NCBI GenBank assembly: GCA_050273025.1
Contig: CP158635.1
Span: 16,740,001 to 16,804,000, forward strand
From: Cenococcum geophilum
Lineage: Eukaryota
Length of the DNA stretch: 64,000 bases
Direction: 5' to 3'
Made by a program: the position numbers and the translations under genes. Below are positions 2,098-52,300 of this stretch, piece after piece. Below the pieces are notes generated by a model, which was not told the origin of the DNA, searched no databases, and saw only the letters and a program-made list of their open reading frames with translations. Numbering within the stretch: position 1 is the stretch's first letter; the number at the start of each line of letters is the position of its first letter.

Positions 2098-3264
2098 CTC
2101 TAAAGTATAATAGGCGGATATAAGCCAACGGCTATAGTACTACTTAAGAAGGAAGCTAATATTCCCCCCCTATAACTATTTATTAAAGCCGCTATAATAT
2201 AAAGGGCGTAAAAAGAACGTAACTCTAATATTATAAAGTATATTAAAATACGCCTAAATAAACTATAGAGGGATTTTAGGGCGCCTTATAAGAGAATAAA
2301 CTAATAACCCTAAAGTAGGGAAGATATATTAGAGAAATAGGTAAAGAAAGTAAAAGAAAAATAGTACTGCTTTAGGGCCTAGGCCTATATAGAAGAGAAA
2401 GAAAGACGTATAAGAGGCTAGTAAAGACAATAGTAAGAGAAAAAAAGGAGCTAAAGTAGAGTATAAAAGAAAGTCGGGAAGCTATTTATCGCAATATAAT
2501 ACTAGCTAGACTAATGCTAGAGAGGTATATAGGAGTTAAAGGTATAGAGGCTAACTAAGGCAAAAGGAACCTAAGCTGTAGTATAGTTAACGCTATAGGG
2601 GGTAAATACTTTAGGGCTCTAAAAAGGCCTAATGAAGGTAGAAAATATAATAGTAACACTCTTAAGAATGGGAATAATAGGACTAAAAGACTAGCTCTAC
2701 TAGGTAGGTGTCCTAGTAGGTAGCCTAAGATATAAATATAGCTAGCTAAGACAGATACTAAAATATATAATACTGTTATGCCCCTTATATACTAACTAAG
2801 AAGTAATACTTTTAGTAGCTAGCACAAAGAACTATAAGACACTACTCTTAATATAAAAAGGCCTTAAGGCGGTTACCTAGTGGCTTATTAGCTAAAATAT
2901 ACTAAACTGGTTCTAGGTTATAAAGGAAATAATAATAAAGGGCGGGGGGGCGAGTAACGGGCGCCCTCTAATAACTCTATAGTAGTAGAGTAAAGTATAC
3001 AATACTAGCGCGTCCGTAGGCTTACTACGGCAGCAGTGGTTCCTAAGGAGGTTAAGAAGTAAGGTAGTAAAAGTACTATAGGTAACTCGCAGGCGCCTTA
3101 TAGGCGCCTTATAGGCGAGTTTTAAAAGGCAAAGAGATAGATTACGGGGTTTTCTTAAGTTAAGTCTTTTTTAAGTTGAGTTTTCTCCTTATATATAAAT
3201 AAGGAGTAGTTTGCGTAGGCCCAATAGGGATCCGAATTAGACGTTAAGCAATGAATTATTATTA
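2098..3264 (+). mobile_element. 3' part of a Tad1-like LINE (ORF2 C-terminus and 3' UTR), interrupted by family-A copy 0
   Basis: Reads L*SIIGGYKPTAIVLLKKEANIPPL (post-RT motif), LLRMGIIGLKD*L and RYKYS*LRQILKYIILLCP (de-RIPed CxCG..QTxxH....C zinc knuckle). Ends in an (ATT)3 tail at ~3255-3264. Confidence 0.85.
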
Positions 3265-4245
3265 TATAATATTAGCAGTTATAGCATCCCTATTCTGCGG
3301 CAGTAATAGTAAAAGCCTACCTATATCCGTTAGTCTTAATAGTGCAATATATAGCTGCCTATATATAAAGACTGGTATACGCAGATTAACCCTAACAAAG
3401 TTAAAAGACTACCCTTATAACTTATTTACGGTTATAGCAAAGTATAGCTAGATTAGAAACTACTTTCTACTAATAATAAACGGCAGTTCTCCCTCTGTAG
3501 AGGTAAGCTTAATATAAGAGATTAACTATAGCTGCCTGTAAAAGCTGCCGCTAAGTATTCGAGATTTAATATAGCGCGGCCTAGGCGCGTAATAACTATA
3601 CGAGTGCAGTTATAGAGGCCCTCCTTAGGGTAAAGGTTCCGTAAAAGGATTATAGACGCGCCTACTTTAAGGGAAAGCTTTAACAGAGGTAAGCTATTAG
3701 GATTAAGTGTTTATAAAAGCTCTAGCAGCGGTCATATAATATTACTATTATCTTTTTCTTTACTTTACTCTATAGTATCTATAGAAAAAAGGGGTTTAGG
3801 GAGCCGTAAGGCCGTATAAGGATAGCCTTATTAATCTTAGCCATGGTATTATTGTAAATAGTTAAGATAGCGCGATTATAGAAGGTATTAAGAGTAGTAT
3901 ATACCCGCGTAAGTAGTTGCGGAGGGTATATATACCTATAAAAGGGTTCCTTAGACCAGAACTAGGCTATACTAAGCGGGATACTAACGCTATTAGATAG
4001 GGATATATTATAGAATAAGCTCTATACCTAAGCTATAAACTACTAATTAACCTTACCCTAGCGGATATATATATTTAGCTATAGGGATAGTATATAGAAG
4101 GTAGGCTAGAGGAATAACCGCTATAGGTAGGCACCTATAATAGCTACGCGGTTCCCCTATAGGTCAATAGGTAGTATCTAAGTAAAGTTACTACCTAAAA
4201 TAGCAGGAAGTCCGCTAAAGGTAAAGTCGTTAGAACGGACGTCTA
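3265..4245 (-). pseudogene. Helitron RepHel (PIF1-family helicase) C-terminal relic
   Basis: Minus-strand translation gives PFSGLPAILGSNFT*ILP, IILLRNLYPKEGLYN, FLI*LYFAITVNKL*G*S and VFIYRQLYIALLR. These are RIP versions of the PIF1 motifs PFGG..GDFxQ, LLRNL..GLCNGTR, FPVRLxFAMTxNKSQGQS and VFxHGQLYVALSR. Confidence 0.9.
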
Positions 4246-45355: not shown

Positions 45356-46897
45356 ATAGGTATAGGGAGAGAAATAAAGAGAACTATTTAAAAAAAGTTA
45401 AAGAGTTATTTACCTAGGAGCCAGTTCTAAAGATCTATTAACTAGGTCTAGAGACGGTTATAAAGATAGATATATTAAACTATATACTAGGGGCGTGCTT
45501 TATATAGAAATATTAAAATAGATGGCACCTAGTAGCATACTATAGTTAAAAGATAATACTACTAGAGTTAAACTATAACATCTATAATAAGGAGTTATTA
45601 GGTATAGTTACAGCACTAAAGAAATAGAGAGTATTCTTATAAGGTATAGAGAAACTATTTATAGTTAAAATAGATTATAAGAACCTAATAGGATTCCTAA
45701 TAATAAAGGAACTTAACTAAAAACAGGTTAAATGGGCGGAAATACTTATAAAATACTATTTTAAGATTTAGTATACTAAGGGTATAGATAATATAAGGGT
45801 AGACGCTCTAAGTTAAAAAGCTAAACTATAAAATAATAAAAAGCTATTAGGGGCTTTACTACAAAAAGATATAGACGGATTAATTAGGTATAATTATCCG
45901 AAAATTATAGTAACTTAAGAGGAATTAAATAAGATTTATAAGTTACTAAAAAGCTTTTAGGCGTAAAGGATTTTAGAAGTATAACTAGAAAATCTATAAA
46001 CGGATATATATAAAAATTGAGAAGTAATATATATTCTAAGAAGTATAGCAAAGCAATTTATAGAAGATTTCTATAAGGGATTAACTTAAGGATATAATAG
46101 AGCCATAGGCTTAGTGTTAAGACTCTAGGAGGAGTATATTATTAACGGAATCTAGGGCTTAGCGCGAAAAGTTATAAAAGAATGTTTAGATTGCTAAAGG
46201 AATAAACTAATAAGGTATAAGCTATATAGAGGGCTATAACCTATTAAAATACTAGAGAGGCTATAGGAGGTTATATTATAGGACTTTATTATTAAGTTAC
46301 TAAAGTTAAGAGATCCTATTACCAGATAAGATTATAACGCGATCTTAGTAATAGTAGATAAGCTTATAAAATAGGAATACTTTATAGCATATATAGAAGA
46401 AATATTAGCAGAAGATATCGCTAGAATCTATATTAAAGAAGTGTTTATAAAATATAGAGTACTAAGTAAAATTATATTAGATAGAGATCTAAGATTTATA
46501 GCAGTATTCTAGGAGGTATTCTTAGCGGAGTAAGGAGTTAGGGCAGTAACTTTTACCGTATATTATCCGCAAATAGACGGTTAAATAGAAAGACTAAATT
46601 AGATACTAGAACAGTATTTAAAACATTATATTAATTATATACAGAATAATTAGGTATCGCTATTACTAGTTATATAGTTTATATATAATGCAATACCTTA
46701 AAAAGGAATAGGTATATTACTATTTAAGGCGAATTACGGATATAAGCTAAGAATATTATTATTACTACAATAAGCGAAGAAGATAAGTAGCATAGCTAAA
46801 GAAAGAATAAAGATGTTAATAAATCTTTATATAGACCTTATAGAATTAATAAAGAAAGTATAAGAGAGAATAAAAAAGTACTATAATATTAAGAGAT

Positions 46898-46983
46898 GCC
46901 CGCGAAGCCCTACTGCACGCGTCCACGTCGCCGCGGGTGGAAACATTATCTGGAATCCTATTCCTCTTGATGGCCAAGTGTAG
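46898..46983 (+). ncRNA. HDV-like self-cleaving ribozyme (predicted)
   Basis: P1 GCCCGCG/CGCGGGT with a G1.U wobble; P2 CTGCAC/GTGTAG; P3 GCG/CGC with L3 TCCACGT; P1.1 CC/GG; P4 CATTA..GGAAT-cct-ATTCC..TGATG; J4/2 GCCAA. G1 is the first base after the TSD. Confidence 0.88.
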
Positions 46984-49360
46984 AGGCGATGGTAGAGAGC
47001 CGTCGCAGCGCGTGCAGCGCTGTTGTTCGACTCTGTGGTGATGAGCCCGCAACGCGTGCAAAGTATCGCCCTTAATAATACTAGGAGCCTTACTACCTCC
47101 GCTTAAAGCTCCTATTCTACCATCTAGGGAGGCCCATTAAGGGAAACTGGGATACGAAAACCGCCCGATATACGACTACCTGGCTCGCAGCTAGGCCCGA
47201 AACTGGCCTTATCCAGCTAGTTAACGTGGACGCGTCCTAGGCGTATAACAGGACACCCTTGGGCTTACACTAGCTCTGAGATTGTAAAGTGTGCGTGATG
47301 AGGGCGTAGGGATCCTCTTTTTATAAGAACTTGTTAAGGTTAACGCGTCGCAGATACTTCGTACAAAACTTGTTAAGGCCCTAAGCCACCACAAAGAACT
47401 TGTTAAGGCCCTACCTAGAGAACTCGTTAAGGCCCCTCTACGAGGGTCTATCTAGTATCTGGTTACACCTAGGTAACTTAGAAGAGGGTCTTAATAGGCG
47501 TGGTGCGCGCGACCTGGTACAGCGACAGCGACGCGACGGCGACGTAATGGTAACGCGACGGCGACCAGACGGCTTAACGAGGTGGAAATATAGGTAAAGC
47601 TCTAGGCAGCGGAAACATAGGCCAGCTTCGACGGCCCTATGGCGTACGACTTAGTTAACTCATAGTTGACTTATAGTTGACTCGCAGGCGACTTATAGGA
47701 GGGTCTTAATAGGCGTGGTGCACGCAACCTAATGCGTATATATATAAGGCGACTTATAGGAGGGTCTTAATAGGCGTGGTGTACGCGACCTGATGTATAT
47801 ATATGGGGGAGGCTATAGGGGAAACACAGGCCAGTCGGATGAGGACTTGATAGTTAGAGACACAGGCATAGCTTATAAAAAGAGGGGACACAAGCTTGGT
47901 TAGTAGGAGGGGGGGGAGTAGGTCGCCTAGTGCGGGACCTGGCGTCTCTACAGCCCCCCTCCTATAAGACACGGTCGGCCTATTATAAGGAGACTCCTAT
48001 AGGCAACGCGAAACGGGAACTGGTAGTAGTATAGGGTGTTGCGCCTCTATACTTCTACTAGCCTCCCGCGGGGCGTAGTGCGTAGTAGCTACTACTAGCT
48101 CTAGGGACCTTACCCCTTAGCTAGGCTCTAACCCCTAGTGCACCTAGTAGATAGGTAGGATTATACCCTAGCCGGAGAGACTACTATATAGCTCGAGAGA
48201 ATGGATGCGCGTATTAGTATATTAATAGACGGAACCGTTCGCCTCTAGGGCGGTATGCTAGTGAGATACGCTTAAGGAGTAAATAGGAGTTACTTAGGCA
48301 GGGGAGGCTTTTTTGGTCTAGGCCTTAACTATAGAAGGTACCTAAGGCTTCTATATTATAGGATATAGCTATAACACCTTTATAGGATTACGCCAATAGG
48401 CACGTAAGACGGGAGTTGCGACCCCTGGAAAAGGCAGCTTATGCCTATACCGGCGGAAATAATAAAAAAGGTGTAAAACTAGAGGCTATAGAAGGCTTCT
48501 AAGCTATGCAAAAGCATACTAACTTTGGGAGGAGACTCTTATATAGACTGCGGGGGGGTAGACTAGTACTTGGGCTAACCTATTATAAGATATCCAAAAG
48601 AACTGGTGAAACCCCCCGTTAAGGTAGTGGCAGCTAACTGCTTATGGAAAGCCCCTAGGCCTTTAGGCCTAGGTTTGGGATAAATACTAGAAAACTAGGG
48701 TAGAGGCCTAGATAAGTAGGCATGTTAAACTCTACTATATAACCACCTGTTTTAACTACTAAATACTACCTAGCAGCTTGGATTGCGACCTACGGTTTTC
48801 CCTATCTCCTTTTGACGGAGTGGTGACCCTTAGAGAGGGCCTAGCTGGGGCCTAGGCACAAAAGATACCTAAATAACACAATATCCCGCTCGCTTATTAG
48901 TATTACGGTGGTTAGAACGGATAAATCCCCCTTACGCCTTTAATAGCTCTAGAGGGGGGAAGGTAAGGCGTATATGGCAGTGGTCTACATAAGAGATAGT
49001 ATATAGGGGATGGGTAAGATATGGGATATAAAGAGACAATAAGACACAGTAATTGATTAGTAAGGCCTAGCTGGGACGTAGTAAACCCTAGCTTTGACAA
49101 GCTAGAGAAGGAAGCAGTGGTTCCTAAGGAGTTTAAAACATCTAAGGAGGAGGACGTGCAGTAGGCCCGTAGGGCCGCTGCTACGTGTAAACATGGCAAA
49201 TCGGGGTTTTTCATCCTACTGAGGCTGCTTATAGGGTTTTTCCTCCCCCAACTGCAGGGTTTTCTTTATGTAAATTACAAGTTTTCCCCCCTGTGACGGA
49301 GTAGTCTGCGTGGGCTAAGATAGGATCCGTATCAGACGTTAATTAAAGAACTACTACTAC
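46898..49360 (+). mobile_element. Non-LTR retroelement, probably non-autonomous, with 5' ribozyme and (ACT)n tail (2463 bp)
   Basis: 14-bp TSD TAATATTAAGAGAT at 46884-46897 and 49361-49374. ACTACTACTAC tail at 49350-49360. 3' motifs shared with the LINE at 2098-3264. GC-richer than its surroundings. Confidence 0.9.
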
Positions 49361-52300
49361 TAATATTAAGAGATCTAAGGGACTAGATCTTAAGGAGGGA
49401 GATAAAGTGTAGCTACTATATAAAATTTTCAAAAGTTAATAACTAAGTAAGAAATTAAACTATATTAGACTAGAACCTTTTAAAATTAAGTAGAAAATTT
49501 TACTAGTTATATTTAAGTTAAACCTACTAGTTAAAATAAAGATCTACCCTATATAGTACATTGCTATACTAAAGCTAGTATATAGGAATATTAAGCTACT
49601 AGTATATAAAGCAGATATATATAGAGGATAGAAAGAAGATAAATAGTAAGTTTTAAAGATTGTTAGCTATAAGGACATTAATAATAAAATATAGTATAAA
49701 GTTAAGTAAATAGGCTACACTAAGACTACCTAGAAGCTACTAAAGAATTTAAAGAATGCTAGGGGAAAGGTATAGGAGTATCGGAAGAAATTAGGTTAGG
49801 CAGCATTAATAAAAAAGGATCGCTAAAAAATAAGTTACCTAAGGGGGACCTAAGAAGACCAGTTGCCGAGCTATTTAGATCTATTTCCTTCTCTATTAAA
49901 AAGAAATCCGTTTTTTTATTATTAAGTTCCTATAAACCCTATTTTATAAGCTTCTACTCCTTAAAATAAACCTTCTTACGCACTTTCTTAAGACGGATTA
50001 GTTAAGTGGACGCCGCTAAACGAGACTTAAGGGCCCGTTGCTAAGCATTAGCAGCCTCCCGTTTAGCGTCCCGAGAACGGCGTAATTTAGTAAAAGTAAT
50101 AGACAGTTTATTATCTAGCCGTATAGCAGTAGATTAAATATAAGACCCTAAGATAAATTAATTAGGGAACTAGACGACTATTAAAAGTAATAGGTTATAT
50201 ATATTTAGTATTAGAGATAAAGCGAATATTATAGGACGAATAAATATTCGCTTTAGTGCACTTTAAATAAAAGGACGGTTATTACAAAGATAGGTTCGCC
50301 AATATAATATAAACTAACCCCTTTTTTAAATAGTAAGAATATAGAGATAGTATAATCTCACTAAGAGATAATATTGCAGTAATAGTACGAACGCGACAAG
50401 CAGTTAAAGAAGAAGAAATTGCTTTAGGTATAATAAGTAATAATATTAACCAAATTAATTAAACGGACATTATACCTCTAGTAAATAACTTAGAGATATT
50501 AGGAATCTTTAAGGATAAAGATAAAGAGGAAGGAGATAGTATTACGGACGCTTTAAGTACAATATTACGACTACTTAGAGAAGAGTTAGAAGAAGCTAGT
50601 TAGTTAATCTAAGTATGGTCTAAAATAGAGCCGATAGAACTATATAATAAGGAATGGTAACTAAGGTTATATAATATAATCTATATAATCTATATAATCT
50701 ATAAAATCCAGAATAGAGTAGATAGAGTATACGTATATTACGTATAAGAAGGATTTTATAGGAGTACGGTTATATATTTAAGGACCCTTAATCCCTACCT
50801 AGATAGTTCCTTCCTTATAGTAATTCTTAGAATATAATTAGAGTTAATCTATTAGGCAACCACTCCACCAGTTATTATTACGTTGTTAACTTTAATTTAC
50901 ATTACCTACACACCTAGCCTAATAACGAGCCTATTATAGTTCCTACTACAAGGTTCCGTTATATAGGTCCCTTCTAAGTTAAGGAATAAATTAGTAAGCT
51001 AGCCTACCGTCTCTAGCTACCCCTATCTATAGCCTATATATATTTAGTATTTTATATAAACCTACTAGAGCTATGGTATAAACTACTACCGGAAAAGAAC
51101 TTCCGTCTAGGCCTAATTAAATACCTTAAGGTAGTGGGCGAGTAGTATAAGGTTAAAGCTATACTACGCTATAAGTCTGTTAAGAATAAGCTTTAATTTA
51201 AAGTTAAATAGCTAGGCTAGCCTGCTAAGAACTCTATATAGGAACTAAAGGATTACCTTAATTATTATAAAGATATTCTAAAAAAATATTAGGACTAAGG
51301 TCCATAATCTATAAGTTGTAAAAAGCGCTCTAATACTATAGTGTTATTGCGACCTATAAAGAAAGCTCGCGAAAAGAGTAAATAGGTTAAATCGGATATA
51401 GAATAGATAGGCTCCGGAAACTATAGGGATAGGGCTACGGCCTAAGGTAGGACGGGTCCTTAGCCTTTTTATATATATAGCATAGAGTTAATAGGGTATT
51501 TTGCTAGAATTGTATTCTTATTTATTAATCTATACTAGGAATATTGTTTTTAGGGCTTCTAAGCCCTTTTTAAAAGCCTTATGAGGCCTTTCTAAGCACC
51601 TAATTAAGGTCCTCGATTGCTATTATGTATAAGAATGAATCCTAAAAGTCTAAACCACAAATGCCTAATCTAGGAAGCCACTATGCCTTATCCTTAGAAG
51701 TAGGATTAGTATCTATTGGCCCTCTAAGGGATGGCTAATAAGAATGAGAACTAGAACCCTTAGTAGGGGTATAGGTAGGCATGAAAATAGGGGTAGGATA
51801 ATAAGGTATAGCTAGAGCAGAGACTCTTAAATGCTTAACACTAATATTAGGTGTAAACCAATACTAATAAAGCTCTTAGGGAGTAAGCTTATAGTTAATA
51901 AAGACACGCTTAAGCCTAGAATGAATAGAGACGTTAGCTGGCTAGTATAGTCTAGAACTACCGAGACCTTACTATAGTAACTGTTAGTTACCTATTCGCT
52001 AGGTACCTAAAGGGTAACCTACCTAATACCGTATTATATTATGCTTTTTTGAAACTTAACGCGTATGCGTGAACTTCTTCCTATAGTAGACAGTAACCTT
52101 CTTCTTATTACCCCCATTATATACCCTATCCTTAGTATACTAACCTTACTCTTATATTAGGCATTACTAGCTAGCTTACTAGGAATTATAGGCAGTATAG
52201 ATAGCTATAGCATAGTCTTAAATTCGGCTAAGTTGTTTAGTATTTATGCTAGAATAAGAGAGAGCCCGGGCAATATAGTAGTTAAGGACATTAAAGGAAC

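Follow-up and report, generated by a model that had tools for sequence, protein, structure and literature searches.

We describe an element of Cenococcum geophilum that probably arose as a bipartite chimeric retrocopy, when the reverse transcriptase (RT) of a long interspersed nuclear element (LINE) jumped from LINE RNA onto a separate non-coding RNA that begins with a hepatitis delta virus (HDV)-like ribozyme fold. The element is a 2463-nt block at 46898–49360 of a 64,000-nt stretch, hereafter the window (assembly GCA_050273025.1, contig CP158635.1, positions 16,740,001 to 16,804,000 of the forward strand, with coordinates counted from its first letter). It consists of a non-coding 5' module (element nt 1–1852; 46898–48749, plus strand; end ...CTCTACTATATAACCACCTG), delimited by homology to other loci, a constant end and the lack of any Pfam family, and of the ~600-nt 3' end of a 5'-truncated LINE ("LINE-B"; 48750–49349, plus strand; junction 48749–48751), recognized from another locus (L080) and from RNA reads. 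An (ACT)n microsatellite tail, ACTACTACTAC, can be read in the window sequence at 49350–49360 on the plus strand.

The block is flanked by exact 14-bp target-site duplications (TAATATTAAGAGAT, 100% identical; left copy 46884–46897 and right copy 49361–49374, both plus strand), and its unoccupied target is present in contigs of two DNA sequencing runs, X1 and X2: a joint in X1 contigs leads directly from 46883 to 49361 with 14 letters in common, and loose ends at 46897 (26 in X1 and 5 in X2) continue with the sequence 3' of the right duplication. This shows that the block was inserted into a repeat that predates it. The AT-rich repeat DNA on both sides is marked throughout by repeat-induced point mutation (RIP), a fungal process; the GC content is 0.51 and 0.45 within 47001–49000, versus 0.27–0.34 in the flanks. 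The window copy is itself partly RIP-mutated (TA/AT ratio 2.06), and in a comparison of sequencing runs most of its T or A differences are C or G in the other copies. An earlier, sequence-only reading of this DNA had proposed a non-autonomous element dependent on a LINE, with a LINE-derived tail, an intact 5' end and insertion by target-primed reverse transcription, and had based the last of these on the 14-bp duplication and the (ACT)n tail; both are present at the ends of 46898–49360, the duplication being exact, and each of the proposals holds for the window copy. The same is true of its remark that RT and endonuclease motifs are lacking, since a Pfam scan of the window element in six frames, read through stops (stops as X), returned no family, and the longest stop-free stretches are 70 aa on the plus strand and 117 aa on the minus strand. 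The AT-rich flanks (46300–46897 and 49375–49960) are a very abundant repeat in their own right, with a summed contig depth in X1 of 1–2 million, against 0.04–0.25 million over the element. A screen of sequencing runs gave shares of 0.10–0.13 in six metatranscriptome runs.

The two parts of the element behave differently among its relatives. Metagenome contigs were scanned with a 33-nt head pattern (element nt 15–47, four positions degenerate), which yielded at least 122 loci, each readable to at most 3.5 kb downstream of any head. Among the matches listed, the first nucleotide is shared by 118 of 122 copies (109 with GCCCGCG, four with ACCCGCG and five with one further transition) and four heads are truncated by a few to ~15 nt; the 40-mers immediately upstream are mutually different in all 120 comparable copies. 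In the 52 loci that offer 2 kb or more of downstream sequence, similarity to the window is confined to nt 1–~1850, the sole exception being L080, which also has the window's last 606 nt, placed 440 nt further along and behind a different junction. The 3' end of the module is likewise constant, at ...ACCTG(CC): at 26 points in 23 loci, as well as in the window, it reads ...CTCTACTATATAAC(T/C)ACCT(G/A), with ...TATATAACTACCT(G/A) at 26 of 26 junctions, after which differing points of a LINE follow.

These downstream parts are LINEs entered at ORF1 (open reading frame 1), the endonuclease, the RT or the 3' untranslated region (UTR). Pfam recognized RVT_1 downstream of the module in L065 (E 2e-18), L078, L060 and L027, RNase_H in L006, and Exo_endo_phos_2 in L021 (E 1e-10), L036, L070 and L055, with RVT_1 also in L055 and L036; at E<=0.01 it found no family in the downstream parts of L001, L002, L026, L034 and L039. 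The translation of L026, read by eye, shows directly after the module what looks like a complete ORF1, containing Cys/His knuckles, and then the beginning of an endonuclease, and the first 500 nt of this LINE recur at four other places. Two partner families, one with a poly-A and the other with a trinucleotide tail, are 24% identical over 194 aa of the C-terminal region of the RT, the C-terminus of L034 having been assigned from its printed translation and this 194-aa comparison. The LINE-B tail of the window matches L080 2201–2796 at 85%, and in run X21 193 RNA reads part from the window sequence shortly before position 48752, which confirms a longer and more strongly expressed relative; in both X21 and X15 the depth over 48760–49374 is 10–100 times as high as over the module. 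The last ~350 nt of the element are also related to a LINE fragment at window 2922–3265, which alone stood out when RIP-mutated copies in the window were sought by purine/pyrimidine-coded BLAST, a search that otherwise returned mostly noise. A RIP-mutated 3' portion of the partner LINE family spans window ~2098–3267 (plus strand), ends ...GACGTTAAGCAATGAA(TTA)n and is 81–88% identical to the LINE parts of L043, L065 and L071; a weaker likeness at the protein level seems to extend further upstream, without any visible module preceding this portion.

Complete chimeras, 2156–3464 nt in length, could be delimited at ten loci, nine of them between duplications of 12–16 bp: 14 bp in L020 (2455 nt), L025 (2222 nt), L028 (2258 nt), L037 (2628 nt) and L071 (3464 nt), 14–16 bp in L080 (2794 nt), 13 bp in L006 (3009 nt) and L048 (3191 nt), and 12 bp in L009 (2305 nt), with L038 (2156 nt) showing a repeat of 9 bp only. 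Their LINE parts span 376–1618 nt in the four complete copies that were measured and more than 1700 nt in others, and their 3' ends are of three kinds: ...GACGTTAAGCAATGAA(TAA)n, ...CAGACGTTAAT(T/C)AAAGAA(CTA)n as in the window, and ...ATACAATGGA(A)n. The length of the duplication seems to track the partner, being 12–13 bp with the poly-A LINE (L006, L048, L009) and 14–16 bp with LINEs that have a trinucleotide tail (the window, L020, L025, L028, L037, L071, L080). A 9-bp "duplication" in L002 and L054 was dismissed as chance.

Two further properties of the junctions bear on how such chimeras are made. At about 12 of 20 junction groups (a manual count) the donor LINE, or the module, has NCC at the position of GCC in the chimera, and in L013 and L062 (element coordinates ~1700–2450) two to three partial 3' parts of the module stand in tandem, each ending ACCT(G/A) and restarting inside the module, as if the template had been switched more than once during a single insertion. 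The acceptor end is constant, the donor points vary, the overlap is short, the LINE partners include several that are unrelated, and jumps recur; together these features point to template jumps by the RT onto the 3' end of a separate RNA. According to the mechanism that we favor, the LINE RT would start target-primed reverse transcription on LINE RNA at the (ACT)n tail, copy ~600 nt, jump to a separate non-coding RNA of ~1.85 kb at its 3' end, ...ACCUG(CC), and copy that RNA to its first nucleotide, whereupon the product would integrate with a 14-bp duplication. If the first 90 nt of the module RNA act as a self-cleaving ribozyme of the HDV-like kind, the cut would fall exactly before nt 1, so that any transcript reading into a copy would yield the same 5' end; and, having no LINE-like tail of its own, the module would spread only as the 5' partner in such jumps.

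HDV-like ribozymes are nested double pseudoknots of the helices P1, P1.1, P2, P3 and P4, with a G.U pair at the cleavage site. By the Rfam structure lines, the head of the module (element nt 1–90; 46898–46987, plus strand) can be drawn in this way: its predicted helices are P1 (1–7/35–41, with G1.U41), P2 (10–12/88–90 and 16–21/81–86), P3 (22–24/32–34), P1.1 (26–27/42–43) and P4 (47–75), with UCCACGU as the L3 loop and GGCCAA as the J4/2 junction, in which the putative catalytic C lies at 46974. Cleavage is predicted immediately 5' of 46898, and this site coincides with the boundary of the element that the duplications set independently. In an alignment of 117 heads (101 distinct), which leaves out the four truncated heads, L050 with its P4 deletion and L100 (79 nt after the start), pairs form in 96.9% of cells, versus 34–55% when the partners are slid by 1–3 columns; columns 76, 77 and 80 are invariant, and GGC(C/U)AA aligns to the GGCuAA of RF00094 and RF02682. 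Rfam searches of the less-mutated L026 head matched RF02682 at 31.8 bits (E 1.3e-4 with 161 nt and 1.3e-3 with 1.7 kb) and RF00094 at 28.3 bits (E 0.012 and 0.13, respectively), with P1 from nt 1–2 and with P1, P3, L3 and GGCUAA (J4/2) aligned, and across 20 short loci all nine Rfam matches with E<=1 were HDV-family models, located at seven heads. A descriptor of the fold, run over both strands of the whole window, matched at 46898 only; it found nothing in 174,900 positions of module bodies and, in the loci, 82 heads at nt 1 and eight other places in 917,416 positions. It replaced an earlier version that accepted P2 only if perfect and consequently overlooked the window copy, its one match being unrelated. 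The minimum-free-energy (MFE) fold of nt 1–183 is not HDV-like, as would be expected because an HDV-like fold is a pseudoknot.

Some details of the head stand apart from this comparison. A 3' strand of P2 at nt 115–120 was considered and dropped in favor of 81–86, which yields a canonical J4/2. This second GUGCAG (window 47012–47017) lies 34 nt past the one in P2 and could pair with nt 16–21, in what could be an alternative, possibly inactive fold, and the MFE fold pairs the region of nt 16–21 with a third partner further on. The head of L050 (3487–3600) has an internal deletion of P4 and J4/2, with GGAAAC joined to AGAGGCGATGG, and a nearly full-length LINE nevertheless carries it as its 5' end.

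A number of observations weigh against our interpretation, and those on the head come first. The window copy gave no HDV match in Rfam, even in a 161-nt search, the matches being weak and either miRNA-like or unrelated; the matches of its relatives lie under the gathering thresholds (27.8–33.3 bits against 44 for RF02682, and 28.3–30.8 against 50 for RF00094); the descriptor was written post hoc, after the sequence had been seen; and double-sided changes occur at five pairs compared with 3.0 in shuffles, 37 of 500 of which reach that value, in copies that are very alike and in an alignment whose columns 15–47 were fixed by the search pattern. RNA depth in X21 is ~5 at the 5' end of the element, too low to show a pile of starts, and the only start site listed in that run is 47882, which lends no support to cleavage at nt 1 or to a discrete 1.85-kb RNA. 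(Most X21 reads over the module fit it only in part and hence come from relatives; their depth peaks at 32–60 over the 58-nt repeats, window 47653–47898, and stays below 22 elsewhere in the module.) Sub-gathering scores, an unmatched window copy, weak covariation and a cleavage that is only predicted would all suit a head that is no ribozyme, its uniform 5' end resulting from a precise start at an internal promoter and its fold being a look-alike. We consider this unlikely, given that matches of three HDV-family models coincide on one stretch of 90 nt and have P1 beginning at nt 1, that all five helices, the cleavage-site G.U and the GGC(C/U)AA junction are all in place, and that the descriptor has a false-match rate of ~1e-5 per position. 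A ribozyme-like head, as the sequence-only reading had it, is thus retained in the sense that the HDV-like fold can be drawn on the window copy and that Rfam HDV models match less-mutated copies below gathering.

The remaining difficulties concern the jump. The junction of the window is ACCTG-TT rather than GCC; identical junctions occur in long and short forms of the module (L065 and L015 versus L078; L055 versus L059) and might reflect either hot spots or the amplification of entire chimeras; a solo source copy of the module did not turn up among the loci; and the model does not account for what defines the module's 3' end. Ligation of two RNAs before reverse transcription, which has reportedly been proposed for U6/L1 chimeras, would join the same parts without any template jump, and we hold it to be quite improbable here: processing, by a ribozyme or otherwise, could produce termini suitable for an RNA ligase, and anatomy alone cannot separate the two routes, yet the breaks in the LINE are non-random, with NCC at ~12 of 20 junction groups, a pattern that fits priming by a short overlap or a pause of the RT better than the joining of random fragments. 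A similar GCC motif is reported for the MINE elements discussed below (PMC2104539).

Least probable, and disfavored, is a short internally deleted LINE of the kind known from R2, with the module as the LINE's own 5' UTR and the ORFs deleted: L026, where the module directly precedes an apparently whole ORF1 and the start of an endonuclease, and the copies with the same head that encode RT speak for it, but three module-less LINE copies (L041, L062 on the minus strand, and L098) start at ~ACTTTTGGAGCTC, ~5 nt past the L026 module junction, and are preceded by unrelated AT-rich DNA, the upstream break never moves from one nucleotide while the downstream break varies, the same module stands on LINEs of 24% identity with different tails, and L013 and L062 hold tandem partial modules. 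The sequence-only reading had offered "internally deleted or chimeric"; on this evidence the second term stands and the first falls, together with the analogy to short internally deleted R2 elements. Nor did the family of ~2.46-kb copies that it envisaged materialize: the window tail occurs in one of 52 loci (L080) at another junction, complete chimeras differ in length, and the junction of the window is absent from the 26 that were read and from all matches of a junction search.

Beyond the head, the body of the module is rich in direct repeats, a direct-repeat search finding on the plus strand four copies of AAGAACTTGTTAAGG(CCC) in units of 15–25 nt (47325–47435), three copies of a 58-nt unit (47471–47804) and three 11-nt units (47652–47695). 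The copy number of the 58-nt unit differs among module copies (split alignments; joint 47645->47746 in contigs), and both the number of these 58–61-nt units and the length of the module vary, the latter between 1.5 and 1.85 kb. A short form of the module lacks ~350 nt (nt ~1443–1790; window 48340–48687), for example in L026, L038, L043, L050, L059 and L078. At the other end, the last ~35 nt (L065:5300–5336, corresponding to window ~48712–48749) form a potential hairpin, GCAGGUA/UACCUGC, that leaves C(C) as a 3' overhang, with z = -1.9 for the surrounding 121-nt stretch; a hairpin of this kind may mark the acceptor end. An assignment to the short interspersed nuclear elements was rejected, for ARAGORN found no tRNA in the window element and Rfam no 7SL or 5S match on the window copy, and the tail differs from copy to copy, with no fixed LINE-like tail.

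The closest known system is MINE of Magnaporthe grisea, formed by template-switch chimeras of the WEIRD non-coding RNA with the LINE MGL (Gogvadze et al. 2007, PMC2104539). As described there, a full-length 1.1-kb WEIRD precedes MGL parts of 230–5461 nt, the duplications are 10–20 bp, there is no solo WEIRD copy, a GCC motif is found at break points, double jumps occur and the copies number 33. Both systems combine a full-length non-coding 5' RNA of ~1–2 kb with a 5'-truncated LINE of varying length at a direct, same-orientation junction, and they have in common duplications in the range of 10–20 bp (14 bp here), the lack of a solo 5' RNA, breaks at (G)CC and multiple jumps. Five criteria for LINE-made chimeras are set out in the same text (PMC2104539), and the findings here are as follows: the 5' part is a full-length non-LINE RNA, 118 of 122 copies among the matches listed starting at nt 1 and the end being a constant ...ACCT(G/A); the 3' part is a 5'-truncated LINE, the window tail lying within the longer LINE part of L080 and RVT_1, Exo_endo_phos_2 and RNase_H being found elsewhere; the points of truncation differ, in ~20 junction groups; the junction is direct and in the same orientation; and short direct repeats flank the whole. 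The differences, by comparison of descriptions, are a module of 1.5–1.85 kb rather than 1.1 kb, at least 122 copies rather than 33, at least two unrelated LINE partner families, a heavily RIP-mutated host genome and an HDV-like fold at the 5' end of the module, the seen portion of PMC2104539 making no mention of a ribozyme. The question that the sequence-only reading had left open, whether such a family has been described in fungi, thus has MINE as its answer for the anatomy and not, within that portion, for the head. We regard the element as a MINE-type chimera whose 5' partner apparently starts with an HDV-like ribozyme, a head that would be the new feature.

The module itself shows signs of a history of its own. 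It has subfamilies separated by transversions in P4, and one of these, CTGGAATCCTATTCC, is found on ten or more different junctions, so that it resembles a self-copying lineage more than it does the product of a single housekeeping gene. We tentatively suggest, as a possibility that falls somewhat short of an even chance, that the module is a selfish "5' hitchhiker" with neither tail nor coding capacity, whose ribozyme regenerates its 5' end and from which LINEs such as that of L026 gain a ribozyme-bearing 5' UTR, and that this may apply equally to WEIRD of the rice blast fungus, an RNA that had been regarded as a housekeeping one. On the usual view, a non-autonomous retroelement survives by having a 3' end that resembles the one recognized by the LINE enzyme, yet the module RNA, with at least 122 copies, has no LINE-like 3' end. 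If its ribozyme is active, this tail-less passenger could be re-made from every insertion, whatever lies upstream. If the suggestion is true, the origin of the WEIRD/MINE system, and that of the ribozymes with which many LINEs begin, could be put to the test, and the handing of a ribozyme-bearing 5' UTR to whole LINEs, as in L026, would be a route to LINE 5' ribozymes; a fungal case would then join the retroelement-borne HDV-like ribozymes of animals and trypanosomes that are described in PMC6765202 and PMC3185411.

HDV-like ribozymes at the 5' ends of elements without long terminal repeats (non-LTR elements) have been described for R2, L1Tc, RTE and baggins (PMC6765202; L1Tc in PMC3185411), and searches of the literature turned up none that had been reported from fungal non-LTR elements or from MINE. 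The module is like them in having a double pseudoknot in the first ~80–90 nt, with cleavage at or near the first nucleotide that would free the element from read-through RNA; in those elements, by contrast, the ribozyme is part of the 5' UTR of the LINE itself, whereas here it would belong to a separate tail-less RNA, joined on by a template jump, in a fungal host. The short internally deleted elements (SIDEs) of R2, colinear deletion derivatives of one LINE (PMC6765202), are similarly non-coding, carry a 5' ribozyme and a LINE 3' end and are mobilized in trans, and differ in that the present element is not colinear with one parent LINE, as its module-less counterparts and its partners of 24% identity show. 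The U6 snRNA-L1 chimeric retrocopies of mammals, described in PMC2104539, resemble it in that a full-length small RNA stands 5' of a 5'-truncated LINE, flanked by duplications and made during LINE reverse transcription; U6, however, is a cellular housekeeping RNA with a gene of its own, whereas the module has subfamilies, one of them on at least ten junctions.

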